Source of the DNA: an uncultured Planctomycetota bacterium
GTDB taxonomy: Bacteria; Planctomycetota; Planctomycetia; Isosphaerales; Isosphaeraceae
DNA: 64,000 nt
Direction of reading: 5' to 3'
Assembly: GCA_963823665.1 (NCBI GenBank)
Contig: CAWGMQ010000008.1
Location: forward strand, 352,001 to 416,000
Part shown: positions 4,470-24,392 of the stretch, in pieces
Position numbering within the stretch: position 1 is the first letter of the stretch
How the letters are laid out: the number at the start of each line of letters is the position of its first letter
Made by a program: the position numbers and the translations under genes
The notes under the pieces: generated by a model
Told to the model about the DNA's origin: nothing
The model's database searches: none
The model's input: the letters and a program-made list of their open reading frames with translations, nothing else

Positions 4470-4565
4470 GACCCGAACCTGACCGGCGTCATCGAGGCAT
4501 GGGATCGACTGCCCGAGGCCGTCCGGGCGGGAATCGTGGCGATGGTGAAATCCGCGTCGAATTGA
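4470..4565 (+). other. Start-less conserved peptide segment DPNLTGVIEAWDRLPEAVRAGIVAMVKSASN* (copy 1)
   Basis: Homologous to 8020-8115, with mostly synonymous differences and a stop at the same codon position. Confidence 0.7.
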
Positions 4566-4673
4566 GTCGGTGGATCGAAATGGTGACCGGATCTACCAGC
4601 CCTACAATCGCGTCGGGACGGAAGATATACTGATCCCATTGAACGAAGCAGTAGCCGATATCGAAATGCGAGC

Positions 4674-5866: not shown

Positions 5867-5938
5867 CTTGTTGTTCGAGGCGTATGCAGATGCCGACAAT
5901 TCGCCGGTCGGTTTTGCCATGTGTCACATTCTCGATCG

Positions 5939-5986
5939 CCGGGGAGGCGACTCGAAGCCTGACCTGCGGATGATGCGACCGCCGCT
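5939..5986. repeat. Degenerate att remnant (tRNA-CAT 3' half)
   Basis: ccggggaggcgactcgaa-gcctgacctgcggatgatgcgaccgccgct versus the tRNA sequence: 1 deletion and 2 substitutions. Confidence 0.85.
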
Positions 5987-6058
5987 GTTGTGTCGGCACG
6001 AACACGTGGAAGAGTCATGTGTGATCGGAAATTAAGAGGTTTCCCGGTCGTTGGCCAA

Positions 6059-7222: not shown

Positions 7223-7503
7223 ATCGGTTCCTTACGGGCGGTCTGTTTCATCAGATCATCGTAATTCTTTCGCTTCAAGTGGTAAACGAGGTGCTCGCCC
7301 CGCATGACTCTGGCGCTGGTGCACTTCACCTGAAGTTCGATCCGCGGTGGTCGGGGGATTTCTTCGCCGACACGCCCGGCGATCCAGAGGTCGATGCTGT
7401 CGTCATCGACTGGGGGTTCAGCGACCATATTCCCTGCGAGGGTCGCAACAGCTCGAACATAAGCGAAACTGAATTGCTCCTTTCGTTGGCTGTTATCCAT
7501 CAT
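7219..7503 (-). pseudogene. DUF4365-like (PD-(D/E)xK-type) protein, apparently internally deleted
   Basis: KEQFSFAYVRAVA..DDDSIDL..RIELQVKCT..KNYDDL, then only 10 more residues; 94 aa, shorter than usual for this family. Confidence 0.6.
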
Positions 7504-7885
7504 GCCGCAGCCTCGATCAGGCACTCGCTTCCTGCCGTGTTGGTGCTCACGACGGCGCCGGCTATGCGGTGTGGTGCTCTACGGCGCGATCGCCAACTTC
7601 GCGGGACCACAGTCTAACGATCATGAGCGGTTCGGCAACCCCCGACAAAGCGAGGCTTTCTTCAGCCTGGCGCGTAATTTGGCCCTGGAGGTGTAGCGAT
7701 AACGCGTGTAGTACGTTCACTGTCGATCTTGGAGTTTTCGGCGCTGCTGCCTTCCGCCGGATGGCGGAATCGCACTGGTTTCCGAGATCAGATATATCGT
7801 CCCGCAGATCCCAGCGTCGCGGCAAGTACGCAGCCGGCTCGTGGGTTTCGTTCGGGATTCGGCTTTGGCTAGCCATCCGATCGAT

Positions 7886-7937
7886 TACCGGGGAGGCGAC
7901 TCGAACGCCTGACCTGCGGATTATGAGACCGCCGCTC
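7886..7937. repeat. Distal att site: 52-bp perfect direct repeat of the tRNA 3' portion
   Basis: taccggggaggcgactcgaacgcctgacctgcggattatgagaccgccgctc is identical to 22005-22056. Confidence 0.97.
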
Positions 7938-8019
7938 GCGAACCGCAAAGATATCAAATCAAACGACTTGCGTCAACACACACCCGAGGCGACAGCGCAG
8001 GGACAGCGCGGCGTCGAAT

Positions 8020-8115
8020 GACCCCGGTTTGACCGCCGTCATCGAGGCATGGGATCGACTGCCCGAGGCCGTCCGCGCTGGCATCGTGGCGATGGTAAAG
8101 GCCGCGGCGAAGTAA
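8020..8115 (+). other. Start-less conserved peptide segment DPGLTAVIEAWDRLPEAVRAGIVAMVKAAAK* (copy 2)
   Basis: Begins 82 bp inside the distal att; homologous to 4470-4565. Confidence 0.7.
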
Positions 8116-8201
8116 GTGCGTCCATTCCCGTCTCGTGCTGAGAACCGGTGCAAGTGAATTCGGAAGCCGCGATGTAGTAAAATCTCCCGGAGTGGATCGC
8201 G

Positions 8202-9102
8202 ATGGCGCTGGTTCATATTAACGGACGTCTTTATTACACCAAGTCAGTGCGACGGGGCGCAAGGGTCACATCCCAGTGTCTGGGAACCGGAGAAGACGCT
8301 GTATTGTTTGCCCAAATGGACGCGTTGCTCCGAGAGGAAGTGCGCGTGCAGGCGAAGCCAGGAATGGGAATGGAAGCGCGAACAGGCCAAGGCGCATCGA
8401 GCCCGGAAAGAGGAAAGAAAGGCCCTTCAAGATCAACTCAAGTCCACCGACCGCGCCATGGCAATGCACTTCCGGACGGTCGGCAAGACTGTCGAGACCC
8501 TGTTGATGGCGCTGGGGTTCCATCGACACGAACGCGGGGAATGGCGACGGAGGCGCAAGGCCATGAGCACCGAACTGGCTGAGACGGATGTTCAAGAACT
8601 GGTCAAGTTAGCTCGTGAAGGTGATCAGATCGCACTGGGCGAGCTGGCCTATCATGCCAGTCGCGCGCTTAAGCCGATCGATCCCTACTCAGGCGATCTG
8701 GCCCGGGCCGTCGTAGAGCCGATGCTGATTGATCTCGTTGCAGAGAAATATGACCCGTTGCGAGACGCCGTGGCCGCCAAACTTGAAGCGCTTCGCCGCG
8801 AATTGGCCCCCCGCGGTTCCTCGATGGCTGAGCGCCTGTTGGCTGAGCGCGCGGCATTCTGCTGGCTTCACGTGCTACTGCTGGAGAGGGACCGGGCCGA
8901 ATTGTTCCAGAACTTTGAGGCCGGTCACGATGTTGACTATCGCAAGATCACGATGGTTGACCAAAGTCTCTCCCGCGCGCAGGTCCGGTTAGAGCGATCT
9001 CTTGTCGCTCTGGCCAAGGTCCGACGACTGAAACTCCCGACCGTCATCAATCAGGTCAACGTCGGCGCGCAGGTCAACGGCGCCGTCCTATCCGAAATCT
9101 GA
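8202..9102 (+). CDS. Hypothetical protein, fused form of the two-gene module at 11757-12495 (one frameshift ~8350)
   Basis: MALVHINGRLYYTKSVRRGARVTS..G.G; GFHRHERGEWRRRR; ERLLAERAAFCWL..LAKVRRLKLP..NQVNVG. Confidence 0.7.
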
Positions 9103-9262
9103 AGCGCCGTATGGCTGGCTCGCCGATTGTTCCGGGCCGTTTGGGCCGGCATCGTGCTCATGGTCTGCGCCGCTGGTTCTCGAATCGAAGGATGATGCAC
9201 GTTAGACTTCGGTTTGCACGGCTATCGTGCAGCCCGACGTCTTTTTCGGTCCGGGGGGAGAA

Positions 9263-9820
9263 ATGTCCAACCGCTTTCAAGAGGGACGCTGGCGAGATTG
9301 GTACGAGGCCAACGCGATGGAGCTGTCGGCTTTCTGTCTCGCACGTGGTCGGTACGAGGTGGCTCACGAACTGCACGCCATTGGAACAGATTCGTACGAG
9401 CGAGAAGTGGTTAACAAGGCATATCCCGGCGATACCGCCGCTGAACGAGAACACTACCGCCAAGTCCTTCGAGAATACAAGGAACGCCTTGCCGAGTTTC
9501 CATTGCTGGTGTCCACCCGATCCCGATTCCTTGAGAGCCTGAGTGCGAATGCAGGGGGGATCGACCGAGACAAATTCAAGACCAAGGTAAACCATGAGGG
9601 CTCGACCGCCTTCGGGGTGATCTGCAATCAACTCGCACGAGGGGGATGGCTTCGCCAGGAGAAGACGTGAAAGAAGTACACGCTTTACCCCGCAGAAACC
9701 CCTCCGCCTAGCGATGAAGTTTTCGTGAGAAAGGAAATGCCTACACCGGAAGAGTTGGACGCCAAAGCTGCCTCGGCCCGCCCGATCGCATCGTTCAACG
9801 CGAATCTTCCGCTAGAATAG
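9263..9820 (+). CDS. Hypothetical protein with winged-helix-like segment; in-frame TGA at 9668-9670
   Basis: GGAG RBS, ATG 9263; QLARGGWLRQEKT*KKYTLYP, and the frame stays open for 49 more codons to TAG at 9820. Confidence 0.5.
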
Positions 9821-10220
9821 CGATCTGGATGTCTGCCAAGATTCTTTGCATTGATCATGGTCGTTCTTACTCTGATCTGGGGTTGCCGATGACCGAAGTA
9901 ATAACCCCCTGCGATAACTCGACGCCAGCCCGCCTCGGCTCGGATTGGGGGAGACTGAACGGGGCGCGATGAGCCGCGCCGTTATCAACGCCGCCAGAGC
10001 GCCCACGCTGACGAATGCATGGCGATCGGCCACGCGGAAGTCTTTTGCATCGACAGAGGCCCTTCGCGCCCGCATCGGGGCGACGATACGCGCGCCGGGA
10101 TGAGTGTGATTCGAGTCTCACTCGGATAATTGATTTGAACCAATGCGAGTTTTTTAATTGCGAACCTCAGACAGATGGGATACCCTCCAGAATCCGCTGG
10201 TTCAATGAAAGGAGAAGGCG

Positions 10221-11399
10221 ATGGCTGCCAAGACTCGTCTCACATGTCCGAAATGCAACCGAAAATCTTCAACACCTAGTGAAATGAAGGAAGGGACGAA
10301 AGTCCGCTGTCCTTCGTGCCAAGAAGTTTTCAAATACGTCCCCGAGGTCGAAGCGATAGACCTGGCTGAAATCGCTGAAATCGAGGTATTGCCGCCAACG
10401 GGAACGGGACGTCTCAAGCCGAACGTCGTCAGAGCGGAGATAGTCCCGCCCCCCGTGCCGGTCCAGCCTACGCCTGTTCATTCCGTGCAGATGGTGAATG
10501 TCAATCTTCCCGCTACGAGAAAGGGGAATTCGCTAGCTGTTGCGGCGCTCGTGCTTGGAATCATCGCCGCCCTAATTTGCTGGGTTCCATTTCTTGGGCT
10601 CCTTGCTATTCCTGTCGCGTTGTTAGGGGCGTTTCTTGGGTTCATCGGATTGGCAATAGCACTGATCGGACGACGATCCGGCCTTTCCTCATCATTGGTC
10701 GGCACGGCGATTAGCTTGGGATCGATCGTGCTCTCGATCGTGATCACAGGGAAGACGTCTAAGTCGATTGCTGATGCGATGGAAAAAAGCTCAAGGGAAG
10801 AGCGTGCGGTTGCAAAAGCGGTCGATAATCCTGGCCAGCCGGTCGCTATTCCTACCAAAACGAAACCCAACGGAGCTGCTGAACCACAGCGATCGCCTGT
10901 CCAGAACGGCGAGGGCATTCCGGCAATCAAGGGTCGAGAGGAATGGGTCACCGCTCCGACTCCTGCAAAGCTCGGAGATGTGATTGTGATAGTTCGCACT
11001 GCCAAAATTGATCGAGTTCCTCTCAAGGTAATTCAAGGGGAAGGCCAATCCGAAGAGCCGATGTTGATGGTCAACTTGGAGATAACGAACACAAACCCGA
11101 ATCGAAAAATCGACTACAAGAGTTGGGCCGGACAAAGTATTTCATTCCAGCGCGACTTCGCCACCCTAAAAGACAACAATGGGAATAATTATAAAAGAAT
11201 ATCGTTTGGACTTTCCGAGCGGCCAATTGGAAGATCTGATTCTGACTCCATCTATCCAGAGAAAGCCCTCGGAGACGTCCTGGTCTTTGAGATGCCATTG
11301 AAGACCGCCGAGACTTTGGACCTTGAGTTGCCCGCCGCGAATGTTGGTGAGAAGGGCTCTTTTAGAATCCGCATTCCTGCTGCCATGATCGAAAGGTGA
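10221..11399 (+). CDS. Zinc-ribbon + DUF4190-like TM helices + extracytoplasmic beta-rich domain protein
   Basis: AAGGAG RBS; CPKC...CPSC; LAVAALVLGIIAALICWVPFLG TM pattern; LKDNNGNNY...LVFE C-terminal domain. Confidence 0.7.
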   Translation: MAAKTRLTCPKCNRKSSTPSEMKEGTKVRCPSCQEVFKYVPEVEAIDLAEIAEIEVLPPTGTGRLKPNVVRAEIVPPPVPVQPTPVHSVQMVNVNLPATRKGNSLAVAALVLGIIAALICWVPFLGLLAIPVALLGAFLGFIGLAIALIGRRSGLSSSLVGTAISLGSIVLSIVITGKTSKSIADAMEKSSREERAVAKAVDNPGQPVAIPTKTKPNGAAEPQRSPVQNGEGIPAIKGREEWVTAPTPAKLGDVIVIVRTAKIDRVPLKVIQGEGQSEEPMLMVNLEITNTNPNRKIDYKSWAGQSISFQRDFATLKDNNGNNYKRISFGLSERPIGRSDSDSIYPEKALGDVLVFEMPLKTAETLDLELPAANVGEKGSFRIRIPAAMIER

Positions 11400-11756
11400 G
11401 TGCGTCGAGTGGATTCGGAACACCCGGCGATGTCCGGCTAATAGGTGCATGACTCATGCACGTACGCTTGGGGGGGCGATCAGACACCTGGCGGTCAGTC
11501 TTTTTCAACCGCAGATGGCCAAACGCGCGCATTTCGTCAAAATTGGAGCCGTTTGAATCGAGCCGATTCCGGCCCGGAATCATCGCAACGCTACAATAGA
11601 ACCGGCCCCCGGGGGATAGGGGGTTGATTTGCTGGGGGTTTCAACTGCGGGATCGTAGTCGACCCCGCGCACATTTATTCGCGCACTTTTCGCATTTTGT
11701 GATAGCATGCACTTGCCGACAGACTGAAGCGGCGCAAAGGGGAGACCGTAGTACAC

Positions 11757-12155
11757 ATGGCCCTGGTTCATCGCAACGGCCGAACCTACATCTACCGATC
11801 CGTTAGGCGGAATGGTAGGGTGACCTCGGAATATGGCGGAAGCGGCATCGACGCCTTCCTAATCAGCCGAATGGAGGCGATCGATCGCGACGAACGGGAC
11901 TACAATCGACGGCTGGAAAGTGAAGACCGCCGGAAACTCGACGAAATTGAGAAAGCCCTCGACGAGCTTACTGCACAAGCCCGAGCCCTCGCACGCGACG
12001 CCCTGACCGCCGCCGGGTATCATCAGCATTGTCGGGGCAAATGGAGGAAACGACGTGGAAACCACCGTGGTGGGCGCGAACGACCGCGAGCGAATGATGG
12101 ACAATTGGGTGGTCAAAGAGCTGGTCAACTGGACCGCCGGCAAGAGGGGCAATGA
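11757..12155 (+). CDS. Hypothetical basic protein (module gene 1)
   Basis: MALVHRNGRTYIYRSVRRNGRVTSEYGGSG...AGYHQHCRGKWRKRR; paralogous to the N-half of 8202-9102. Confidence 0.7.
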   Translation: MALVHRNGRTYIYRSVRRNGRVTSEYGGSGIDAFLISRMEAIDRDERDYNRRLESEDRRKLDEIEKALDELTAQARALARDALTAAGYHQHCRGKWRKRRGNHRGGRERPRANDGQLGGQRAGQLDRRQEGQ

Positions 12156-12495
12156 GCAGACAAAAGAGAAATTGCGGCAAGATTTGCGGAACATCGTCGC
12201 CGACCTTGTCGGCCCCAATCCAAGCCCCGCTGAGCTAGTGCTTGCCGAGACTGCCGCGATCAATTGGTTCGCCCTCCGCATGTTTGAGGCCCGCTATTCG
12301 GGATCGGCGACCTCCGATGAAGGGCTAACACTGGGTCAATCCGAGCATCAGCAACGTCGGATCGACCGGACACACCGACGGTTTTTGGACACCATCAAGA
12401 CCCTGGCAACGGTGCGCCGTCTCGCCCTGCCCGCCGTTCAGATCAACGTCGCCCGCCAGCAAGTCAATCAAGTGAACGTCGGAGAGTCGGCATGA
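12055..12495 (+). CDS. Hypothetical helical protein (module gene 2)
   Basis: GGAGG before GTG; GPNPSPAELVLAE..INW..RRIDRTHRRFLDTIKTLATVRRLALPAVQINV..QVNVG; paralogous to the C-half of 8202-9102. Confidence 0.7.
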   Translation: METTVVGANDRERMMDNWVVKELVNWTAGKRGNEQTKEKLRQDLRNIVADLVGPNPSPAELVLAETAAINWFALRMFEARYSGSATSDEGLTLGQSEHQQRRIDRTHRRFLDTIKTLATVRRLALPAVQINVARQQVNQVNVGESA

Positions 12496-12776
12496 GACGA
12501 CGAAAAGCGCTCAATCGGGGTGGCCGCCCATCCAAGTTCACGACCGCCGCCGTGGTGAGGATCACGTCCAGGTTGCTCGATGGAGAGACACTGGACGCCG
12601 CCGCCCGTGCTGCTGGCGTGGGACCCTCGACGCTCTACCGATGGATGGCCCAGGCCAAGGCCGGGGACCCTCGGTTCGGACCGATCAACGCCGTCGTGAG
12701 GCAAACCAAGCACGCGAAGCAACTCGGTGCTGCTCTTGGCTTCTTCCTACCAAAACTGATCAAGGCCGGTTTTTAG
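12492..12776 (+). CDS. HTH protein (GRPSK + HTH; terminase-small-subunit-like or transposase-like HTH)
   Basis: GGRPSKFT...LDAAARAAGVGPSTLYRW; ATGA overlap with the preceding gene. Confidence 0.65.
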   Translation: MRRRKALNRGGRPSKFTTAAVVRITSRLLDGETLDAAARAAGVGPSTLYRWMAQAKAGDPRFGPINAVVRQTKHAKQLGAALGFFLPKLIKAGF

Positions 12777-13009
12777 AAATCGTTTCGCTGGTTGCAGTGA
12801 AATAGCAGCGAAGGAATCTCCCAAAACCGACCCCGAAGGATGGCGGTGATTTTGAGAATCGCTTAAGTCGACAAATGAAGCCGGCCCTTGTGCGCGTTGA
12901 AAACTCTTGGCAATATTGACACCAGTGGCGTCCAAGTAACAAAAATGAAGGAAGTGCGCAAGATGGGTCAGATGGGATGCACTGTGACCTTTGAGAGTCG
13001 TCTTTTGAA

Positions 13010-13555
13010 ATGTTTGAAGCCGCAAGATTGCTCGGACCGACAACACGAAGTATCGTTTTGCAGACCCATCTTGGCAACAAGATCGTAAATGAGATCGCCC
13101 TAGCACCGGACGAGGGGAGTATAAGAAAGTACGAGCGCTTACTTGCGAATCATCCGCACTGGTCTAAGCGCAGGCCACCTTATGGCATTTGCAACTGCGT
13201 CGGGCATGTATGGGCAAGCAGGCGGACTGCTGTATACGAGAATCTTGACAGCCAAGTAATCAGAGTTTTTGACGACGATGGCTACACGGCGTTGGACTGG
13301 CCTAGAGAGAGTTTGTGGTTAGGCGACCTGGTTACCTATTGGGATTCGGCGAAACGACACAAGGGGTTTTTCCACGTCGGCATTGTGTTTGAAATTAGGA
13401 GTCTACCCGACGGAACTCAGCAGATACCTTGGATACTCAGTAAGTGGGATGACAGTTCAGGGGAAGTCCTGCATCACTACAAGGAAGTGCCTTTCTCGGA
13501 CGACATAGAAGCGGAGTTCTGGACGGACCGTGCACTAGGAAGGACTGGGCGATGA
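13010..13555 (+). CDS. Putative papain-like/NlpC-type cysteine hydrolase
   Basis: NCVGHVWASRR, DDGY, GDLVTY, HVGIV, SKW..GEVLHH: Cys/His dyad layout. Confidence 0.55.
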   Translation: MFEAARLLGPTTRSIVLQTHLGNKIVNEIALAPDEGSIRKYERLLANHPHWSKRRPPYGICNCVGHVWASRRTAVYENLDSQVIRVFDDDGYTALDWPRESLWLGDLVTYWDSAKRHKGFFHVGIVFEIRSLPDGTQQIPWILSKWDDSSGEVLHHYKEVPFSDDIEAEFWTDRALGRTGR

Positions 13556-14061
13556 CTGCGCTCGCGCTGCTGAAAACCGACGAGTTTAACTTCTCCATCG
13601 GATTTCATCATACGCCCGCCGTTGTCAGGCGCAGGCTGCTCATGTCTCCCATCGTGCGACACGTAGCAGCCGCTCTGCGGTTCGGCGCTATCACAGAAGC
13701 GATGCTGCGGGAGTTCGTCGGATCGATCATGTCAGAGTTCACCGCGGGGCGCCGCCTCCCAAATGATCTGGCGCTGGCTGCCGTTGCAGTCGTGCTTGAA
13801 TTACGCCCAACCGACTTCGCAGGCGAGTACCTTCATGATTTGGCGCGCCTTCGGTTATCCGAGATGACAGTCAGCATTTTCGTCGCCCGCGAATGTCTGA
13901 AGAATCGGTGTTCGGTTCCGAAACACCAGACTAAGACATTTGTTTTCCCGTCGGCCAGTAGACCCCCAAGGGAGTTGCGCGTGTCGATGCAACGACGACG
14001 AGTGTTCACCATGTCCCCGCGCTTGGTCGCGTCGTATTCCGCATATATAGAGACCGCGTAA
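13552..14061 (+). CDS. Hypothetical protein
   Basis: 169-aa ORF with ATGA overlap upstream and TAATG overlap downstream. Confidence 0.65.
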   Translation: MTALALLKTDEFNFSIGFHHTPAVVRRRLLMSPIVRHVAAALRFGAITEAMLREFVGSIMSEFTAGRRLPNDLALAAVAVVLELRPTDFAGEYLHDLARLRLSEMTVSIFVARECLKNRCSVPKHQTKTFVFPSASRPPRELRVSMQRRRVFTMSPRLVASYSAYIETA

Positions 14062-14498
14062 TGGCAAGGCTCGAATACTTCATTGTCTGCGAATCTTGCT
14101 CCGTCGATGCGGAGAAAAATAGTGTCAGTTTTTTCCATGTGCTGGAAGACATATTCCCAGATAAATTCCCGTATGAGATCTCAACAGTAGACGCCGTGAG
14201 CCTCTGGAATCTGGACCCCGCTGACCGAGATACCGATTTCCAGGCGACGGTCGTGATCAGTGTTCCCGGTTCCACACGTGGCGTCGAAGTCCCTATGAAC
14301 CTGTCGCGGGGCCACATGAGACACAGGGCAGCCGTGACCATCACGGGCATTCCGATAATTTGTCCCGGGGAACTCCTGTTCGAGGTGAAGCTGAATGGCC
14401 TTCATGGGGCGAATCACATCGTATATATCCATGATACTCCGGCTCTAAAAGCCGCGGAGAGGTTGACAACAGATACGACCACTACGTCACTTGACTGA
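14061..14498 (+). CDS. DUF6941-like beta-sandwich protein
   Basis: YFIVCESCSVD..NSVSFFHVLEDI...PG.LLFEVKLNG pattern. Confidence 0.55.
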   Translation: MARLEYFIVCESCSVDAEKNSVSFFHVLEDIFPDKFPYEISTVDAVSLWNLDPADRDTDFQATVVISVPGSTRGVEVPMNLSRGHMRHRAAVTITGIPIICPGELLFEVKLNGLHGANHIVYIHDTPALKAAERLTTDTTTTSLD

Positions 14499-14766
14499 TA
14501 TGTGGACACTGACAACCTCGCGGTTGCGTGTCTGCGACGTCGAAAGACGAGCCCGCGCGTCTGCTCAAACACTTCGCCGGGTATCGGAGAGGCGTAAGTA
14601 GATCTCACGGCCGCCTCGCGGTGACCTGGAATCGAACGCGCCCGCGACGCTACACTGAGCGGGGGATGGTTTGATCGGTGGCCACTGGTCAGGCCCAACG
14701 CGGACCCGGCATCACGCTCCCCTGTGCGTGCGCTGCCGGGTCCGGCCCGTTCACAGGAGACGCGAG

Positions 14767-16326
14767 ATGTCGAGCCGGGATGACTTTGAGGCCGCGCGCA
14801 AGGCCGCGATTGACTGCGCTACCGCCTCGGGGTGGTTGCTTCAGGTTGCCACCGGGAAAGCCCGGCTTACGCCAACCCAAGAGCGGGAGATTGCGAAGGT
14901 TCTCGATGAACAGGCAGGGGACGACCGACCGCTCGAAATGCCCGATCCGATGCCGATCTTTCTCCCGAACGCCATCGGCGCGTTGTGCCAGGCGTTGGCG
15001 AGCGGCTGGGGTGTCATCTCGAAGGTGGAGGATGACTTGACCCTGGCGGCCCCCGCCTCTGCGACCGCCGGGGGGATGACGCGCGCGAGCGCGCATCGGC
15101 TGGCCTGGGACTTTGGCCGCCACCTATGGGCGTCTATTCGCAATCTCGACCACCGCCTTGACCCTCAGTGGCAGTGTTCCGGTACTATCGACGCAAGCCG
15201 ATTCGACCTGGATGGGGCGTCTGTCAAAGAGAACCTGCCTGCCATTGTGGCTGAGCTGACCGCGAAACCGCCTTTCGATGGTGGCCGCGTCGTTGCTCTT
15301 ATCAAACAGGAATTTGTCCGCGCGATTGAGCGCTTGGAATCGACCCGGGCCGAGCCGTCCCGAGAAACCGACCGGCGCATCCCCTCTCTCGAAGAACTGA
15401 ACTTAATCGCGCACGCCCTTCGCGATTTTCTGGCCACAGTCGAGAAGTACAAGCTCTTGCTTCGTGAGCCCGACTCATCGAATGTAATGGCCGTTCAAAT
15501 GCCCCGTTTTGCGGTGCTCGAATCACTCTGCCGGCTGGAGAATCTGCTTAACCTTTCACGATTGCCCTACAATTCGGCGCCTGGCGCCAACTACGCTGTA
15601 CGTTTCTGGCCCTACGACGTCATGATCGCTCTGCCGACATTGAGAGCGCACGTATATGAACTCATCAAGCGATGGGACATACCCGAAGTCTGTAACGATG
15701 GCAAGATTTTGCGGAGTTATCCTGCCGGCATCTTCCCACCATCTTTCACTTTGACGCCCGCCGAACGCGATGGGCTGGGATTGGCGTTGTCGTTGCTCCT
15801 CGGAGTCTTGCAGCCGAGCCCAGCCAGCCCGCAGCCACCGCTACCCAATCCGGAGACGCTGGGCGCTGTACAGAAGCCGCCGGCTCACTCACATGGGGAG
15901 GCGCCTGGCGGGGTGATATTCCTGCCGCCAATTCACGACCCTACGCTATTAGCCGCCCCTCTCTACTTGATTGATCCGAACGCGCGTACGATCAGGAGAG
16001 TTGAGCCTGGCGCGGCGCCCTCGGCAACCGAAGCCGATGGTCAAGGGACCGCTGAACAGGGGAGACCGCCCGCCGCAGGGACCGTGACGCCCGAGGCCCC
16101 CGCCGAGCTGCCCGACCTTGTGACTTTGGATCAGGCCGCCGCGGCTGTCCACAAGAGCAAGCGCGCCCTGGAATACCATAAGAGCAAGGGTACGTTGCCA
16201 GCCCCGTTTGTCGAAGGGGGAGCCGGCAAGGCGTCTCTGTACGACTGGAAGTTGATCGGCCCTTGGCTGGCCAGGGAGTTCGGCATCCCACAGCCCGAGA
16301 AATTCCCGCGACCTCGGGAGAGCTGA
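14767..16326 (+). CDS. Large hypothetical protein with C-terminal MerR/Xis-like winged helix
   Basis: AGGAGA RBS, ATG 14767; Pro/Ala linker, then LVTLDQAAAAVHKSKRALEY..LPAP..LYDW..PWL. Confidence 0.65.
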   Translation: MSSRDDFEAARKAAIDCATASGWLLQVATGKARLTPTQEREIAKVLDEQAGDDRPLEMPDPMPIFLPNAIGALCQALASGWGVISKVEDDLTLAAPASATAGGMTRASAHRLAWDFGRHLWASIRNLDHRLDPQWQCSGTIDASRFDLDGASVKENLPAIVAELTAKPPFDGGRVVALIKQEFVRAIERLESTRAEPSRETDRRIPSLEELNLIAHALRDFLATVEKYKLLLREPDSSNVMAVQMPRFAVLESLCRLENLLNLSRLPYNSAPGANYAVRFWPYDVMIALPTLRAHVYELIKRWDIPEVCNDGKILRSYPAGIFPPSFTLTPAERDGLGLALSLLLGVLQPSPASPQPPLPNPETLGAVQKPPAHSHGEAPGGVIFLPPIHDPTLLAAPLYLIDPNARTIRRVEPGAAPSATEADGQGTAEQGRPPAAGTVTPEAPAELPDLVTLDQAAAAVHKSKRALEYHKSKGTLPAPFVEGGAGKASLYDWKLIGPWLAREFGIPQPEKFPRPRES

Positions 16327-16354
16327 CCGCAATGCATAAGAGTTCGCCAACCGA

Positions 16355-16381
16355 AAACCGCCACAAACCGCACTAAACCGC
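16355..16381 (+). promoter_or_regulatory. Three AAACCGC direct repeats at exact 10-bp period
   Basis: Copies start at 16355, 16365 and 16375, upstream of the replication operon. Confidence 0.6.
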
Positions 16382-16440
16382 CCCCCTGCCTGATACGGTC
16401 ATTCGCGTGGTTCCCATTTCTCCATTTTGGAGACACGCGA

Positions 16441-16674
16441 ATGATCGAGCCTGTGCTGATCGAGCCCGGGGCGCTCTACGATGACGGATCGCTCCGCCAA
16501 GCCCTCGGGTTGACTGACGCCGCCCTCGCGAACGCCCGCCGCGCGGGGGTACTCCGCTACACACGGCAGGGGAAGCGGACCCTGTACTTGGGAAAGTGGA
16601 TTCTGGCTTGGCTGGAGAGCCAGGCCGCCCCCCAGACCGAGGCCGCCCGGCCCGAGGGGGTTGCCCGTGCCTAA
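16441..16674 (+). CDS. Small excisionase-like HTH protein
   Basis: LRQALGLTDAALANARRAGVLRYTRQGKRTLYLGKWILAWL; GGAGA RBS. Confidence 0.7.
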   Translation: MIEPVLIEPGALYDDGSLRQALGLTDAALANARRAGVLRYTRQGKRTLYLGKWILAWLESQAAPQTEAARPEGVARA

Positions 16675-16942
16675 ACACGAACGCCCCCAGCCCGAGGCCG
16701 GAGGCGCTGTGGATGATCCGCGACAAGATCATCCTACCGCGCAACCGCCCGCTGTCTCAATCCACGACAAGCTGACCTGGGGATGGGACGACGTCGCCGC
16801 CCTGACCGGACTGTCCCGTCGGTTGCTTGAGCGCCAACTCTCTGCCGGCAAGATGCCGCTGCCTGACTTAAGGATTGGCCGACGTGTTCTCTGGCGACCC
16901 GAGACTATCCGCCGATGGATTGGGGAGGGTGGCCGCCAATGA
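16661..16942 (+). CDS. AlpA/excisionase-family DNA-binding protein
   Basis: DDVAALTGLSRRLLER..GKMPLPDLRIGRRVLWRPETIRRWI; start may be GTG 16667. Confidence 0.8.
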   Translation: MPVPKHERPQPEAGGAVDDPRQDHPTAQPPAVSIHDKLTWGWDDVAALTGLSRRLLERQLSAGKMPLPDLRIGRRVLWRPETIRRWIGEGGRQ

Positions 16943-18633
16943 GCTTGCCAACCTCCTATGAAGCTTGGACGCTTGCGCGCGTCGCTTGCGGGATGCCCCT
17001 TAATGGTGAGCTGCACAAACTGTCCGAGCCGTGGCGATCGCTGGCCGAAGCGATGGCAGGCGCGCTCAAGGACAAGCGGCAATCCATTCTCGACGGATTC
17101 CTGGCCGGCCGCCCCGATCGAGACGCCATCATCAAGGCCATAGCCGACGCCGATCCTAATGGACCGCCGCCGCCCTCCGAGGCAATCCCGTCGCGCGATG
17201 CGTGGCCGCCCTTGCGCCTCGACGAGCTGCCTTCTGTTGAAGCATTTCCGGCCGACGTTCTACCGCCGATCGCTGCTCAACTTGTAATCGAGGGAGCGGA
17301 CGCGATCGGTTGCGCGCCGGATTTCCTCGGGCTCACGATGCTGGCCGTTGCAGGGGGAACAATCGGCCGATCGGTGAGCTTGCTGTTGAAGCCGAATTAC
17401 TTCGTCAGTGCGACGCTCTACTCGGGTTGCATCGGACCGCCCTCGGACGGGAAGACGCCTGCCCTTAAGGCCGCCGCCGCCCCGGTTCGTTCGATTGACG
17501 ACGAGCTGGCCGCCGAACACGCCGCCGCGATGGAACGATGGCGAGCGGACCAAATCGGCCCCGATGGCAAGGAGAAGAGAACCAAGCCCCCCGCGCCGCC
17601 GAGACCCCGGAGGATCGATATCGATGACGCCACGATGGAAGTTTTGCCTCTTATCCTGGCGGACAACCCGCGGGGACTGATCATGATTCGGGATGAGCTG
17701 AGCGCATTCGTCCTCGGGATGAATCAGTTCAAGGGAGGAAAGGGCAATGATCGATCCAACGCGCTCAAGATCTGGTCAGGCGACCGAATTATCAAGGATC
17801 GCGTGAACCACGAAGGCGGAACGCCGATCCGTTGCACGCATCCTGCGCTCAGTATCGTCGGTGGGTTGACGCCGGACCTGCTCGGGGAACTGACCGACCC
17901 GAAGGGAAGCGCCGACGGGTTCATCGACCGGTTCTTGCTGGCATATCCTGACCCCCGGCCCGTGCCCGATTGGTCGGATCGCGGGATTCCCGAGGTTCTC
18001 CTCGACGACTGGCGATCTCTGGTCGCCCGTTTGTGGATGAGACCCCTCGACGTCAAGGAAGGCAAGGAAGTCCCCCATGTCATGCGATTCACGCCCGAGG
18101 GAAAGGCCCGCTGGCAAAAACGCTATGACGAGCATTCCGCGGAGATGAACGCAACAGATTTCCCGCCGTTCCTACGTGGACCCTGGGGTAAATTTCGCGA
18201 GTACGCTGGTCGCCTGACCCTCATTGTGACTCTGACGCATCACGCTGCGGACCCGACCGCGGACGCCTTGGCCCTGCCCGATGTTGGTCCGCGACAGGTT
18301 GACGCTGCGTGGCGATTGGTCAGTTACTTCAAGAGCCACGCAAGGCGAATCCGCGCTGTCATCGCGTCCGGACCCGGAACCGGTGAAACTCGCGCTGCGA
18401 AAGCCATCGTGGATTGGGTGCGATCCAGAGACCTATCAAGCTTCACCGAGAAAGACATCAAACAGGCGCGACGATGGATCAATCACAGCGACCTGCTCGA
18501 CGCCCTCGACTATCTAATCGACCGGGGTGCAATTCGGCCCCGTCAAGCACCGACGCCAACCGCCAAGGGTGGCCGGCCGCCGTCTCCAGCCTACGACGTT
18601 AATCCTGAGTTGCTGGCTACTGCAAACCCTTAG
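16939..18633 (+). CDS. DUF3987/YfjI-family P-loop replication protein (helicase-like)
   Basis: FPADVLP, Walker A GPPSDGKT, RDELS, DGFIDRFL, C-terminal winged helix ..GGRP. Confidence 0.85.
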   Translation: MSLPTSYEAWTLARVACGMPLNGELHKLSEPWRSLAEAMAGALKDKRQSILDGFLAGRPDRDAIIKAIADADPNGPPPPSEAIPSRDAWPPLRLDELPSVEAFPADVLPPIAAQLVIEGADAIGCAPDFLGLTMLAVAGGTIGRSVSLLLKPNYFVSATLYSGCIGPPSDGKTPALKAAAAPVRSIDDELAAEHAAAMERWRADQIGPDGKEKRTKPPAPPRPRRIDIDDATMEVLPLILADNPRGLIMIRDELSAFVLGMNQFKGGKGNDRSNALKIWSGDRIIKDRVNHEGGTPIRCTHPALSIVGGLTPDLLGELTDPKGSADGFIDRFLLAYPDPRPVPDWSDRGIPEVLLDDWRSLVARLWMRPLDVKEGKEVPHVMRFTPEGKARWQKRYDEHSAEMNATDFPPFLRGPWGKFREYAGRLTLIVTLTHHAADPTADALALPDVGPRQVDAAWRLVSYFKSHARRIRAVIASGPGTGETRAAKAIVDWVRSRDLSSFTEKDIKQARRWINHSDLLDALDYLIDRGAIRPRQAPTPTAKGGRPPSPAYDVNPELLATANP

Positions 18634-18695
18634 AACCCTAGAAACCGACGCCCCAAGCGGTTGCCCGCGACCGGTTCTTAGGGTTCTTAGGGTTT
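18624..18695. repeat. Inverted arrays of 9-bp iterons (AACCCTAAG-like); candidate replication origin
   Basis: aaacccttagaaccctagaaacc (18624-18646) and ggttcttagggttcttagggttt (18673-18695): 20/23 complementary, 26-bp spacer. Confidence 0.7.
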
Positions 18696-18757
18696 CTAGC
18701 AACAAGTATCGGGTGCATGCGATGGGAATGGGCGCGTCTGTCGAGAACCCCTGGATC

Positions 18758-20206
18758 ATGGTTGCTGGAAGTGATCGGATCGACTGGGCGGATGTCCGCG
18801 ACCGGGTTAACCTGGCCGCCATCGCGACCGCCTTGCTTGGCCCCGCCGCCGGCCGCCGCGGGGAGGGTGGCCGCCGCCTCTGGTGGCCCTGCCCGTTCCA
18901 TGCTGACCGGAATCCGTCTTTCGCCGTCGAGCCTGGCAAGCCCTGGTGGCGATGCTACGGGTGCGGAGAGCACGGGGATGCCCCCGCGCTGGTGATGAAG
19001 GTTCAGGCAGTTACTTTCCCCGAGGCCGTTCGCTGGCTTGCCGAGCAATCCGGAATCGCGACGTCATCGAGCCGCCCCTGGCGCCCCTCGGGGAGAGAGC
19101 CGATCCGCCGGAGGCCCCCGGACGCTGGCCCCCTCAAAGCCCCTGAGAGGCCCGCCAAGCAGCCCTCGGGATTGCCCCTGGCCGATGCGTTGAAGCTAGT
19201 CGAAGATGCCGCCGAACGAATCTGGAGGCCCGAGGGACTGGTGGCCCTGGAATATCTCCGACGCCGTGGACTGACCGATGAGACAATACGTCAGGCCCGC
19301 CTCGGGTGGGCGCCCGATGTTTCCATTCCGGTGAAGGATGGAATCCGATACTGGCGAGTCTCTGGCATCGTCATTCCCTGGGTGGACCGTGGCCGCCTGG
19401 CGATGGTGAAGATCCGCCGACGCACGGGACAAGAGCCGAAGTATGCGGAAGCGTTTCGCGACCGCCCTTCGATCTTTCCGACCCCCGAGGCCGTTCGCCC
19501 TGGGAAGCCGCTGGTGATCGTGGAAGGGGAGTTTGACGCCCTCTTACTGGGTCAGGCCCTCGGGGAGCTGGCCGCCGTTGTGACCCTCGGTTCGGCATCG
19601 GCCCGCCCCGAGGGATCGACCTATCTGGCGATGCTTCCCGCCCCTGTCTGGTATCTGGCGACCGACGCCGACCCCGCTGGGGACACGGCCGCCGAAGGGT
19701 GGCCGGCCCGAGCGGTTCGCGTCGAGCCCCCCTCGGGGAAGGATTGGACCGAGGCCGCCCAAGCCGGGGTGGACCTGCGCCAATGGTGGACCGACCGCCT
19801 CGGGGGACTCGAGACCGCCCCGCCTGACCCGGCCCCCTGGAAGGTGTCGTCCTCGGGGGACGTCGAGCGAGACACGCAATCGCCCTCGGGGTCCGAGGCC
19901 CCCGCCGCCTCGACGCCCTGGCCGCCCCGCCCCGATGAGCTGGCAAGCTGGCCCCTTGAGTGGCGCGAACGCTGGGGAGCGCTGGCGAACGACCTGGAAG
20001 CCCGAGGGGTGTCGTTCCCCGAATCCGAGGCCGAAGCGTTCCGACTAGTCAAACGCGAGATGGAAGCCGGCCCCGTCGAGCTGTCTCGCCCGCCCGAGGC
20101 GTCGAGCCGCGCGGCGGAGGCCCATTTCGCGCAGGCGACGCTGTTCACTAGAAGTAGTGTACAAGATTCCGGTTTACGGGGGGGGGTACACTATAATGTT
20201 CACTAA
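18758..20206 (+). CDS. CHC2 zinc-finger/TOPRIM DNA primase-like protein (start uncertain)
   Basis: CPFHADRNPSF..CYGC, YLRRRGL, IVEGEFDAL, ATDADPAG, KDWTE. Confidence 0.88.
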   Translation: MVAGSDRIDWADVRDRVNLAAIATALLGPAAGRRGEGGRRLWWPCPFHADRNPSFAVEPGKPWWRCYGCGEHGDAPALVMKVQAVTFPEAVRWLAEQSGIATSSSRPWRPSGREPIRRRPPDAGPLKAPERPAKQPSGLPLADALKLVEDAAERIWRPEGLVALEYLRRRGLTDETIRQARLGWAPDVSIPVKDGIRYWRVSGIVIPWVDRGRLAMVKIRRRTGQEPKYAEAFRDRPSIFPTPEAVRPGKPLVIVEGEFDALLLGQALGELAAVVTLGSASARPEGSTYLAMLPAPVWYLATDADPAGDTAAEGWPARAVRVEPPSGKDWTEAAQAGVDLRQWWTDRLGGLETAPPDPAPWKVSSSGDVERDTQSPSGSEAPAASTPWPPRPDELASWPLEWRERWGALANDLEARGVSFPESEAEAFRLVKREMEAGPVELSRPPEASSRAAEAHFAQATLFTRSSVQDSGLRGGVHYNVH

Positions 20207-20230
20207 CAAAGTGTGATGACATGTTCACTA
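20142..20230. repeat. Cluster of TGT(T/A)CACTA repeats in both orientations
   Basis: tgttcacta at 20142, 20197 and 20222; inverted tagtgtaca at 20155; gtacacta at 20186; locally AT-rich. Confidence 0.65.
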
Positions 20231-20271
20231 AGTGAAATTGATGCGAATTGTGGCGAATTTCTTCCGACCAC

Positions 20272-20310
20272 ATACTTGCGTCGAGTCGAAGTATCTGGTA
20301 TCTTCGAGCC
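20272..20310 (+). promoter_or_regulatory. Sigma70-like promoter, probably leaderless, with overlapping inverted-repeat operator
   Basis: TTGCGT(20276)-17 bp-TATCTT(20299)-6 bp-ATG(20311); ATACTT...AAGTAT at 20272 and 20289. Confidence 0.6.
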
Positions 20311-20526
20311 ATGAGATACGCAAAGCTGAGTGACGAAATCAGGGAAGCGGTGAACGCCTCGGGGATGAGCCGTTACGCGATCGCCAAGGCCCTCGGGATT
20401 GCCGAATCCACGATGAGCCGATTCGCGAACGGCAAAGGCGGACTATCGATGGACATCCTCGACCGGCTGGCCGAACTGCTGGGATTACACATCGTCGTGA
20501 AGCGCACGAAGAAACATGGGAGCTGA
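20311..20526 (+). CDS. XRE-family HTH regulator
   Basis: SGMSRYAIAKALGIAESTMSRFANGKGGLSMDILDRLAELLGL. Confidence 0.9.
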   Translation: MRYAKLSDEIREAVNASGMSRYAIAKALGIAESTMSRFANGKGGLSMDILDRLAELLGLHIVVKRTKKHGS

Positions 20527-20529
20527 CCA

Positions 20530-22059
20530 ATGGCATCGTTTCGGAAGCATGGCAAGGTTTGGTATTACCGGTTCGTCGATGGGGACGGAAAGAAGCTTGA
20601 GCGGAAGGGTTGCTCCGACCGCCGGATGACTGAGGACATCGCCCGCGCCGCGGAATCCGAAGCCGCCAGTATCCGCGGTGGCTTGGCCAACCCGAAGGAA
20701 CTGGGCTATCGCGACCACGCAACCCTTTCAATCTCGGATCATACTACCGCGTGGGTGGAATCCCTCGAAGCTAAGGGCGCGACGCCCAAGCATGTCGAGC
20801 TGTTCACTCGACGCGCCCGGAGGGTTTTCGCGTTAGTCAGGGGAGCTAAGCTGGCCGAAATCGAGCCCGCGAAAAACGCAACGCGAGCGGACATCAAGAA
20901 AGCCGAGGAGAGTCTCAAGACGTGGGTAGAACCGGCGCGGCTGGCCGACCTGACCGAAGAGCGGGTTCAGAAAGCTCTGGCGACGCTGAAGGCGGAAGGA
21001 CGCTCGCATCAAACTTGTAATCATCATCGAGCCGCGGCCCGTGCATTCGCGAAATGGTGCCACGACACGCATCGGACACGCGATAACGCCCTTCGAGCGG
21101 TGAAGGGCTACAACATCAAGGAAGACCGCCGACACGACCGCCGGACGATTTCTCTCGATGAGCTACACAAGCTCATTCAGGCCGCGGACCGCGGACCCAC
21201 AGTGTTGGGAATTCCCGGCCCCGTTCGGGCACTGTGTTACCGGCTGGCCGTGGCGACCGGCTTGCGCTATGGCGAGATTAGCAGCATCACGCCCGAGTCA
21301 TTCAACTGGGATGCCCCGAGCGTCACTGTAACGGCCGCCTATACGAAGAACGGCGACCCCGCGACGCTTCCTCTTCCGGAAGACTTGGCGGACGACCTGG
21401 CCGCATTTGTAGCATCGGTTCCCGCTGGGGAGGCTATCTTCGCGTTGCCAAACGAAAAGGGCGCGGAAATGCTTCGGGTGGACCTGGAAGCCGCTGGCAT
21501 CGACTATCAAGACGCCTCGGGGTTGTTCTTCGACTTTCATTCCCTCCGATGCCAGACGGCGACTCTGGCCGACGCTGCCGGGGTTTCCCCGAGGGTTGTT
21601 CAGCGTCTCATGCGACATTCGACCCTCGAACTGACCGGCCGCTACACCCGCCCGCGAGCGGTCGACATCGAGGCCGCCGCCTCGATGCTGCCGAGCCTTA
21701 AGCCCGAGGGAAGCCGGCCCGATTCCCTGGCCGCGACCGGGACAGACGGCGGGGTTTCCCACCGACCTGCGTCCGAGGGAAGCGGAACGCCCTCGGCAAT
21801 CGCTTGCGAAATAGGCGTCGAAGACCGACGCATAAACGAAGCCCTTTCCCACCATTTTCCCAACGCAGAGCCCGGATCGGTGCGGAAACACGCGGACACT
21901 GGCGCGATGGAGGGTTTCGCCGTCGATTCGTCGAAGAAGCGCCGCACGCTAGAAAGGAAGGGGTTTGACGCACGCCGCGGCACACTGGCGGGTTCTGTCG
22001 GAAATACCGGGGAGGCGACTCGAACGCCTGACCTGCGGATTATGAGACCGCCGCTCTAA
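20530..22059 (+). CDS. Tyrosine recombinase/phage integrase
   Basis: Arm-binding N-terminus WYYRFVDGDGK; catalytic TGLR, TKNG, FHSLR, MRHS, RYT; ORF extends through the att/tRNA antisense. Confidence 0.95.
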   Translation: MASFRKHGKVWYYRFVDGDGKKLERKGCSDRRMTEDIARAAESEAASIRGGLANPKELGYRDHATLSISDHTTAWVESLEAKGATPKHVELFTRRARRVFALVRGAKLAEIEPAKNATRADIKKAEESLKTWVEPARLADLTEERVQKALATLKAEGRSHQTCNHHRAAARAFAKWCHDTHRTRDNALRAVKGYNIKEDRRHDRRTISLDELHKLIQAADRGPTVLGIPGPVRALCYRLAVATGLRYGEISSITPESFNWDAPSVTVTAAYTKNGDPATLPLPEDLADDLAAFVASVPAGEAIFALPNEKGAEMLRVDLEAAGIDYQDASGLFFDFHSLRCQTATLADAAGVSPRVVQRLMRHSTLELTGRYTRPRAVDIEAAASMLPSLKPEGSRPDSLAATGTDGGVSHRPASEGSGTPSAIACEIGVEDRRINEALSHHFPNAEPGSVRKHADTGAMEGFAVDSSKKRRTLERKGFDARRGTLAGSVGNTGEATRTPDLRIMRPPL

Positions 22060-22078
22060 CCAGCTGAGCTACCCCGGC
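22005..22078 (-). tRNA. tRNA with CAT anticodon (elongator Met or Ile2); CCA not encoded
   Basis: GCCGGGGTAGCTCAGCTGGTTAGAGCGGCGGTCTCATAATCCGCAGGTCAGGCGTTCGAGTCGCCTCCCCGGTA folds as a cloverleaf; lacks initiator hallmarks. Confidence 0.95.
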
Positions 22079-22088
22079 ATTGACTGAG

Positions 22089-22123
22089 AACGCCCTCGGA
22101 GCGAATCGATCTCCGAGGGCGTT
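22089..22123. repeat. Perfect 13-bp stem hairpin between integrase stop and tRNA leader
   Basis: aacgccctcggag-9 nt-ctccgagggcgtt; no clear U-tract. Confidence 0.7.
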
Positions 22124-22308
22124 ACCATTGACTGGTTCAAACTAACAGATCGATTGCTTGGCCGCAACTTCTCCACTGGACATCTGAGGTTCCGGCGGGT
22201 TTGGAGCGACGCGATCGTCTTCGCGGCTCTTCGCAATAGCGAGACGGCGAGCGAACGGGGGGTGCACGCCCACAAAGCCAGTGCCGTCCATCCGACACTC
22301 TCAGCGGT

Positions 22309-22332
22309 CGGCACACGGAGTGTGCCTGCTAC
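22309..22332 (-). repeat. GTAG-type REP-like palindrome, family C (GTAGCAGGCACACTCCGTGTGCCG)
   Basis: GTAG plus GGCACAC/GTGTGCC palindrome; single copy in the window. Confidence 0.55.
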
Positions 22333-22718
22333 ACAGCCCGACGCTCGCTCGCGCTCCAACTTCGAAATCGTCCGTCAACTTCCGCACAATCGACAACGAC
22401 CAACCACTTGGCGCCCGTCATGAACCGAGTTCCGATTCTTCGTGCGCCACACGCAACGAGAAAACCCGCGTGGAGTTGTGTCGATTCCGTGCGCGCCCGA
22501 TTATTCCTGCGCCACACGTAAGTCCAAGGCCCGCAAGGCCGTGGCGCATGTGGCGCAGAAATGAGGGGCTCGCAAATGTTTTCTCGAGGGCTCTTCTCAG
22601 CGAAACGCCCTGAACATTACCCTGGAAGGTTCGGAACGGCACTCGCCTGGCGCGAGTTGGCGCCGTGAACAAGTGCGACAGAGCTTCACGCTATCCGGGA
22701 TCAACCGAGCGAGACGAT

Positions 22719-24392
22719 ATGCCCCCGCAATACATCATGACCATCGAAAACCTCTCCAAGGCCTACGCCAAGAAGGAGGTCCTTCAGAATATCTGGCTCT
22801 CGTTCTACCCGGCAGCCAAGATCGGCGTCATCGGCGGGAACGGATCCGGCAAGAGCACGCTCTTGCGTATCATGGCGGGAATCGAGACGGACTTTCACGG
22901 GTCGGTGCGGCACGCGAACGGGATCACCATCGGGTACCTGTCCCAGGAACCCATGCTCGAGCCCGATCTCGACGTGCGCGGGAATGTGGAAACGGCCGTG
23001 GCGCCCATCCGCGCGCTGCTGGCGCGGTTTGAAGAGATCAACACCCGCATGGGCGAAGGGCCCGACGTCGACGAGATGGACCGGCTGCTCGACGAACAGG
23101 CCAACGTGCAGGCCGGGATCGAAACGGCCGACGCGTGGGACCTCGATCGCCGCATCGAAATTGCCATGGACGCCATGCGGCTGCCGCCGGGCGACGCGAA
23201 GGTCAGCACGCTCTCGGGCGGCGAACGCCGGCGGGTCGCACTCTGCAAAATCCTGCTCGAACGGCCGGACCTGCTGCTGCTCGACGAACCCACCAACCAC
23301 CTCGACGCCGAAAGCGTTGCCTGGCTCGAACGGACCCTTCAGGAATATGACGGCACCGTCGTGCTCGTCACCCACGACCGCTACTTCCTCGACAACGTCG
23401 CCAAGTGGATCCTGGAACTGGACCGCGGAAAAGGGATCCCGTGGGAAGGTAACTACTCGTCCTGGCTCGAACAGAAACAGGCGCGGCTGGCGCTCGAAGA
23501 GAAACAGGAGAGCTCGCGACGGAAACAGCTCGCCCGCGAGCTGGAATGGGTGCGCATGTCGCCGCGGGCCCGCGTGGCCAAGAACCGGGCGAGATTGCAG
23601 CGATACGAGCAGCTCGCGAGTCAGGATGCGGATAAGCGCGATGAGGCGATCGTGCTTCAAATCCCCCCGGGGCCGCACCTGGGTACGCTCGTCGTCGAGG
23701 CGAAGGACCTCGCCAAGGCGTATGGCGACAACCTCCTTTTTGAGGAGATGAACTTCCGGCTGCCGCCGGGCGCGATCGTCGGCGTGATCGGACCCAATGG
23801 TGCGGGCAAGACCACGCTGTTTCGCATGATCACCGGGCAAGAGACTCCCGATCGCGGCGAGCTTCGAATCGGCGATTCGGTGATGATCTCGTATGTCGAT
23901 CAGAACCGTGACGCCCTCACGGCGGAGAACACGGTGTTTCAGGAAATCACCGGCGGCCAAGATCCGGTTGTGCTCGGCAAGCGGAGAGTGCCGCCGCGTG
24001 CGTATGTCGCTCAGTTCAACTTCAAGGGGCCCGACCAGGAGAAGAGGGTTGGCAATCTCTCGGGCGGCGAACGGAACCGCGTGCATCTCGCCAAGCTGCT
24101 CAAGAGCGGCGGGAACTTGCTGCTGCTGGACGAGCCGACCAATGACCTCGATGTCGAGATGCTGCGGGCACTCGAGGAAGGCCTGGTCGACTTCGGCGGC
24201 TGCGCCGTCGTCATCAGCCACGACCGGTGGTTCCTGGACCGGATCGCAACCCATATTCTCGCCTTCGAGGGGGACAGCAAGGTTGTCTGGTGCGACGGCA
24301 ACTACCAGACTTATGAGGAACAGCGGCACGAGAGGCTCGGACTCGAGGCCGATCAGCCGCACCGGCTGAGATACAAGTCACTCACACGCTGA
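22719..24392 (+). CDS. ettA: Energy-dependent translational throttle ABC-F protein EttA
   Basis: [19 protein letters not shown], two ABC domains ([13 protein letters not shown]), ELEWVR linker, C-terminal PHRLRYK. Confidence 0.95.

Follow-up and report, generated by a model that had tools for sequence, protein, structure and literature searches.

The window analysed here is a 64,000-nucleotide stretch of contig CAWGMQ010000008.1 from an uncultured Planctomycetota bacterium of the family Isosphaeraceae. It holds an integrated island of about 14 kb, bounded by two copies of an attachment site (att) that corresponds to part of a tRNA-Met gene, with a tyrosine integrase gene (int) at one end whose reading frame runs through att. 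The features at the two ends of the island are as follows.

20530..22059, + strand: tyrosine integrase, integrated form, 509 amino acids (aa); open reading frame (ORF) with a Pfam PF00589 match, E 4.6e-14
22005..22056, + strand: att core, integrase side, 52 bp, making the 3' part of the restored tRNA; direct repeat
7886..7937, + strand: att core, distal copy, the displaced tRNA 3' fragment, 100% identical; direct repeat
22004..22079, - strand: tRNA-Met(CAT), the target gene; tRNA prediction
7938..8019, + strand: distal half of the linker, 82 nt, aligned to the in-frame tRNA-Met junction L200
8020..8115, + strand: conserved tail of 31 codons (DPxL..V..AW..LPEAVRAGIVAMV), predicted helical hairpin, without a start codon of its own
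21755..21864, + strand: arm-like repeats, integrase side, TCCCA(C/A)C at 21757, 21847 and 21858, the last two 11 bp apart
7991..8009, + strand: arm-like repeats, distal side, GACAGCGC at 7991 and 8002, 11 bp apart

The 52-bp direct repeat is exact, without extension at either end, and equals the 3' part of tRNA-Met, ending just past the anticodon arm. The integrase frame reads the core in antisense and, as an earlier note on this DNA had described, spans the whole att and ends at a TAA (22057-22059) supplied by the host (5') half of the tRNA; the window sequence likewise agrees with that note in having GCG, not TAA, after the distal core. The codon for the catalytic Tyr372 lies at 21643 and is followed by 137 further codons up to the stop. 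The catalytic residues form the canonical R-K-H-R-H-Y set (R244/K273/H337/R340/H363/Y372-type, numbering +/-2) and are invariant in the A1 alignment. By analogy with the predicted fold of a naturally fused relative, P0018, the window integrase would have an arm-binding-type N-terminal domain, a core-binding domain and a catalytic domain, then a linker of about 105 aa traversing att. The repeats on the two sides of the core would serve as arm sites. On the rebuilt circle the integrase gained the 27 codons foreseen in the earlier note, stopping at TGA 8019-8021, and the +1 frame ran for the expected 58 codons (7939-8112, TAA 8113-8115), which take in the tail. The conserved tail is thus one base (+1) out of the integrase frame in the window's own copy.

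The relation between integrase and tail was then followed across related elements. Among 121 genomes of the host family, profiles matched an integrase in 99 and a tail in 93. Sixty stretches were taken, mostly with integrase and tail on one contig and strand and with selection blind to frame; loci from GTDB, metagenomes and viral collections were added, and 156 sequence sets were scanned. To count as an element, a locus needed the catalytic end of an integrase, a tail upstream of it and, between the two, a direct repeat of at least 16 bp; once a duplicate and a repeated record had been removed, 47 distinct elements remained. We rebuilt attP in silico for these homologous islands, the check proposed in the earlier note, setting the crossover at the anticodon-side end of the repeat. 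The tail was in frame with the integrase in 40/47 elements and in frame without an intervening stop in 37/47, or 38/47 when either repeat end was allowed as the crossover. Homologous integrases did not mostly stop before att, since the integrase frame was open to the core in 42 of the 47 (other frames: 6 and 16). Nor was the frame across attP random with respect to the tail: 40 junctions fell in frame 0, and the stretch from integrase to tail was open in 39, 1 and 4 of 47 elements for the three frames. Where the integrase was open for at least 290 codons upstream, 32/37 elements were in frame and open; where it was not, 5/10 were.

The islands range from 2 to 37 kb and target at least ten tRNA isotypes in both tRNA orientations. 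An in-frame example from a cultured strain is the tRNA-Leu island L020 of Aquisphaera insulae. Sense-type elements have the complete tRNA at the end away from int, whose frame crosses the displaced fragment in the sense direction. On the integrase side all three tRNA frames (measured at the T-loop) occur, and the distal side compensates; the spacers span 160-418 nt and 119-230 nt. Antisense-type elements were in phase in 24/31 cases against a shuffled mean of 12.8, and sense-type elements in 10/12 against 4.4. On a tree from a quick search, in which Mx8 and L180 sit on long branches whose placements we do not interpret, tRNA orientation switches at least four times with the frame kept. In three of the four sense-type elements at tRNA-Leu(CAA), an in-frame TAA is present in the host fragment and avoided in the element's own copy. 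As read from these sequences, selection is acting on the summed frame, not on one inherited frame. The stop of the integrated form lies between 78 codons upstream and 100 codons downstream of the core end, the terminal residues being unrelated; two forms had no stop in range. Arm-like repeats usually match across att, at a median of 17/20 bases between cognate sides and 13 between elements. The P0018 model has a three-stranded N-terminal domain (strands 3-6, 13-18 and 24-28 plus a helix), and its integrase part finds its best fold matches in Tn1549 Int and lambda Int. Sequence and predicted fold place the family among arm-binding-domain tyrosine integrases with arm repeats on both sides of the core. 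Named relatives come from Isosphaeraceae and other Planctomycetota.

The arrangement recurs outside the host family. The tail was present in 96 of 400 other Planctomycetota genomes, and 40 of the 150 tail matches listed were examined, long contigs being favoured. Ten carried a window-type integrase with an att repeat, and all ten were in frame and open (L275 and L288 are close kin). Four more (L267, L268, L269 and L293) carried a second-clade integrase with GGLRxPSE, SPKT and HNLR motifs, joined to the same tail, again in frame and open in every case, so that the combined set stood at 14/14. The second clade is barely alignable to the first (hhalign E 0.023) and separate on the tree (SH-aLRT 98). 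The rest of the 40 comprised two integrase remnants in the tail frame, four att sites without an integrase, one natural junction out of frame, and 19 matches with no usable pair within 20 kb. Six integrase loci on viral contigs had no tail match in range.

Natural junctions tell of the same order of parts. All three tail-bearing proteins of 299-952 aa were PF00589 integrases with a tRNA fragment in the linker, and among eight natural integrase-att-tail junctions five were in frame up to the tail (in L201 the tail stops early). The tail, about 30 aa, sits on a linker of about 100 aa that is predicted to be disordered and whose sequence also carries arm repeats and the att core, giving the circle order integrase, linker, hairpin. 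In P0018, residues 420-515, between the three-domain integrase and the tail, have a predicted local distance difference test score (pLDDT) below 50. The tail itself is predicted to form two helices (pLDDT 95.5), its conserved residues making the hydrophobic core of the hairpin. The tail is a coding sequence: across 89 tails, identity by codon position was 0.68/0.80/0.51, the third position being least conserved, and synonymous differences outweighed nonsynonymous ones (values below). With an E-value cut-off of 0.001, the tail profile matched 7,826 clusters, of which the best 150 are ORFs 35-227 aa long that in most cases have the tail at their end. We found no match for the tail in Pfam, PHROGs, PADLOC, NCBIfam, named clusters of the ESM Atlas or GenBank phages, nothing useful among PDB sequences (best E 0.43), and no match for either integrase or tail in phage collections.

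The closest known parallel is the Myxococcus phage pair Mx8/Mx9 (PMC6070905, PMC4383910), which offers a more direct precedent than SSV1 and BPs, the two systems proposed in the earlier note. In Mx8, attP is situated within the 3' part of int; on integration IntP/Int is converted to the prophage form, the gene receiving a new 3' end while the enzyme stays active (PMC6070905). Like the elements studied here, the Mx8 record shows, in order, the catalytic Tyr, tandem short repeats, an antisense tRNA T-arm segment, a further repeat and a C-terminal segment, in an Int of 533 aa. Unlike them, Mx8 is a 49.5-kb phage, whereas the present family consists of satellite-like islands of 2-37 kb with one hairpin common to two distant clades. 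Similarity between the integrases is too low to be useful (BLASTP E 0.025, profile E 0.074) and the tails are unrelated (match probability 0.3%). Membership of the Mx8 lineage was rejected, there being no similarity beyond superfamily level and no homology between the tails. As a separate observation, the att-flanking repeats of Mx8 (L236:6370-6590), TGACAGCG, come very close to GACAGCGC, the arm-like repeat on the distal side in the window, despite the unrelated integrases; the likeness may be chance.

SSV integrases are split upstream of the catalytic domain. SSV1-type fuselloviruses are described as having int interrupted by an att inside the gene, with non-canonical active-site residues (R..K..R..Y) (PMC5861418). 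In the present family, by contrast, the catalytic set is canonical (H-x-x-R, H present) and whole, and only the distal tail is cut off. BPs and CyranoPS are similar in that attP lies inside a gene, the target is a tRNA and the host completes the stop, by a single base (PMC9262239; 10.64898/2026.10.29.762952). In those systems it is the repressor that is split, an ssrA-like tag is lost, and arm sites and a directionality factor are lacking. Unlike BPs, the islands split the integrase itself (the window's Xre gene is whole), carry arm-like repeats and xis-like genes, and have tails of which none ends in -AA. Islander treats att-spanning integrases as an exception and names only Mx8 and SSV (PMC4383910). 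Our literature searches, with subscription papers and supplements outside their reach, found no description of an att-spanning integrase in Planctomycetota. The principle of an att-spanning int is already known from Mx8, and its family-wide occurrence in Planctomycetota is the variant reported here.

Taken across the family, the rebuilt junctions show that excision adds, and integration removes, a conserved module with a predicted fold. The proposal in the earlier note that integrated and excised forms differ in their C-termini is supported for the family (37/47 and 14/14), but not for the window copy as assembled, whose circle would yield a 27-aa off-frame end in place of the tail. Integration cuts int at att; the hairpin, now lacking a start, stays behind at the island's other end, and the integrase ends in arbitrary host-encoded residues. 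We think it probable that these Planctomycetota islands, a satellite-like family that targets tRNA genes, carry a recombination-state switch of the Mx8 type, the window copy being a member that is defective as assembled. The long form would be made only after excision or on entry into a new cell, and may be the form efficient at attP x attB integration; the short form, together with xis-like proteins, would drive excision. A difference in directionality between the two forms is plausible by analogy with Mx8. The hairpin would most likely act as a tethered oligomerisation or partner-binding module; a hydrophobic hairpin on a long tether suits such a role. A fuller version, which we hold tentatively and consider rather doubtful, is that the hairpin might be a portable, self-associating integration module, a built-in directionality factor joined to the enzyme on the circle only, where it would clamp integrase protomers into the integrative complex through the 100-aa tether encoded by attP. 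Such a module would have been adopted by at least two distant integrase clades across Planctomycetota, survive changes of tRNA target and att orientation, and, in part of the family, link translation of the first distal gene to the excised state.

Several points weigh against the state-switch reading. Ten of the 47 related elements, the window's included, were not in frame and open, and a further element, in G071 at the window's tRNA-Met site, is out of frame as well, with a stop in its integrase frame ahead of att. Because the elements are kin, the nominal p (3e-13) for in-frame junctions overstates the case. The 89 tails that gave the proportions of synonymous (pS, 0.55) and nonsynonymous (pN, 0.26) differences were collected by protein profile, a procedure biased toward pS > pN. 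For the hairpin, the fold matches (the C-terminal domain of CFAP410, Z 4.3; the TP901-1 CI dimerisation domain, Z 4.0; the C-terminal domain of CapH, Z 3.5) are weak, with root-mean-square deviations of 1.8-2.0 over 30-32 residues, values that commonly occurring arrangements also give. Which form favours which reaction is taken over from Mx8, and the Mx8 tail is unrelated. Finally, no attP or circle junction was present in the short-read contigs aligned to window positions 4000-23000 (176 records from 4 runs); the DNA runs that contain the sequence do so with small shares (0.08-0.14), and no such RNA run was listed.

The off-frame tail of the window copy admits more than one explanation. Of ten distal halves at tRNA-Met, seven match the frame in which int is read in this copy; the window belongs to the other three. 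Its distal linker is 2 nt shorter than that of the in-frame natural junction L200 and otherwise aligns well, the gap lying near 8008-8010 in a GC-rich stretch. It is conceivable, though we would not expect it, that the cell carries an intact element, the +1 offset having arisen as an error of assembly or, with still lower likelihood, reflecting a programmed +1 frameshift. An assembly error would fit this 2-nt gap, and off-frame cases are commoner where the integrase is also broken upstream (5/10 in frame, against 32/37). Such an error would leave the arm mismatch (below), the duplicated module and the other breaks at the distal end unexplained, and no indel was listed among the 176 short-read records, although these do not show coverage of the site and none of the 32 pieces listed bridges 7938-8020. 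A programmed shift was considered and judged unlikely, because N/D-D codons automatically produce a TGA where the tail begins, and the seven in-frame tRNA-Met halves need no shift.

A defective window copy is the reading we prefer. The window's tail frame meets a TGA at the anticodon, and therefore no partner integrase could read it through. Arm repeats match across att at only 12/20 bases, against 17-18 between the window's integrase side and the distal arms of other elements. This mismatch, together with a duplicated, frameshifted module at 8202, suggests a composite island whose distal end would come from an earlier, different element that had inserted at this tRNA. Frames are broken nearby (the 8202 module and the PDC-M02A/B pair), and those of the integrase, helicase and primase are long and open. 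To judge from its sequence, the window copy looks decayed or chimeric and is defective as assembled. With its tail out of frame it is a poor model of the family.

The swap of C-termini could instead serve as a stability switch, the version suggested by the comparison with BPs in the earlier note: the tail, or the host-encoded end, would be a protease tag and would fix how long the integrase lasts in either state. C-terminal swaps do control stability in BPs-type phages (PMC9262239), and the long disordered linker would suit protease engagement. Tail ends vary, however (GR 18, RS 8, many singletons), the conserved residues make up the hydrophobic hairpin core, and the residues at the ends of integrated forms are unrelated. 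An ssrA-like degron was rejected, since 0/93 tails end in -AA, which leaves this version of the claim unsupported. A folded, adaptor-binding degron is conceivable. Overall we regard a stability switch as improbable.

Slightly less probable again, as the main function, is translational coupling, in which ribosomes finishing the long integrase would re-initiate on the first distal gene of the circle. Of 70 tails ending in TGA, 27 overlap an ATG (ATGA); 20 of these open an ORF of at least 50 aa, 15 with a Shine-Dalgarno-like stretch, and almost every recognised gene of the window's island runs in the same direction as int. Against this, 66/93 tails, the window's among them, lack the overlap, and coupling does not require a conserved amino-acid sequence. 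It is likely an add-on in part of the family.

A tail that exists as a small protein in its own right, or as a conserved DNA element, with the fusion due to accidental read-through, is very improbable: gene callers do annotate short stand-alone ORFs (the best 150, above), and an in-frame ATG lies between att and tail in 14/47 elements, but about 110-185 codons stay open and in phase, in both tRNA orientations, beyond chance. No conserved start for the tail was found among the 47; the ATGs are scattered 1-75 codons upstream, are about as frequent in other frames (24/94), and form a start with a Shine-Dalgarno-like site in only one element, and a start of the tail's own was rejected.

Returning to the state-switch reading and the island that carries it, the remaining features of the window's element and its older neighbours are listed below.

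16441..16942, + strand: two small HTH_17 / excisionase-like genes, candidate directionality factors; Pfam/PHROGs
16915..20526, + strand: DUF3987 helicase-like gene, CHC2/Toprim primase and, directly upstream of int, Xre-type helix-turn-helix (HTH) gene
11757..12776, + strand: three-gene module, its last gene a small-terminase-like HTH
8202..9102, + strand: second copy of the 11757-12495 module, frameshifted
5936..5987, + strand: degenerate third att copy, 46/49 bases matching over its best part; debris of an older insertion
4470..4565, + strand: orphan second tail copy, 84% amino-acid identity to the first

The Xre gene, at 20248-20526, is uninterrupted. Among the 47 relatives, an xis-like gene occurs in 41, a helicase in 29, a primase in 29 and a terminase-like gene in 4. 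Like satellites of the phage-inducible chromosomal island (PICI) type, the window's island packs int, Xre HTH, primase, helicase, xis-like genes and a small-terminase-like HTH into about 14 kb. A split int is not known to be a PICI feature. The gene content, as annotated, is satellite-like, and PICI-like by genes alone.

Host synteny with a same-genus genome ends at about 3285. Between there and the distal att, a leucine-rich-repeat gene (4674-5330, +) follows directly on the orphan tail and has many paralogues in the same-genus genome G029. An ORF with an NALRHGL motif (5670-6035, +), without a Pfam or PHROG match, is interrupted by the degenerate att and is probably a remnant of an older island. 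A candidate defence pair, PDC-M02A (DUF4365) and PDC-M02B (6059-7524, -), both fragmented, lies between the degenerate att and the distal one. The source genome has three further tail copies, at window 4470-4565, C8:1997962 and C8:186252; the C8:1997962 copy shares the GACAGCGC arm type and has a broken integrase close by. For a second full integrase (C10:1324324-1325478), the 40 kb examined contained no tail.

The same tRNA-Met is occupied by other elements in relatives. At this site in G029 (L207, contig C19) there are two att copies, one followed by an in-frame tail and the other read in sense by an opposite-strand integrase, so that both orientation types occur at one site. On the host side of the tRNA, an ABC-F ATPase gene (22665-24392, -) was found in 5/5 relatives searched, with the tRNA adjacent in three. 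Segments at 22270-22580, downstream of the promoter side of the tRNA, have many copies in G029 and are possibly repeats of the repetitive extragenic palindrome (REP) type. Further along the window, a unit of about 2.45 kb stands in three tandem copies (32400-39900), 65-90% alike and each ending in conserved segments of 67-74 nt, and two arrays of 102-nt repeats with a 34-codon period (40244-46672, minus strand) probably encode tetratricopeptide repeat (TPR) proteins.

For the biology of these Planctomycetota, the att-spanning int is the rule, not the exception, in a group present in 99/121 genomes of the host family. The 'hypothetical proteins' that match the tail (7,826 clusters) are explained as orphaned integrase ends. 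The family supplies many natural pairs of long and short integrases for the study of how a C-terminal swap sets the direction of recombination, and integrases mined from integrated islands of this group for genome engineering would be of the tail-less form.

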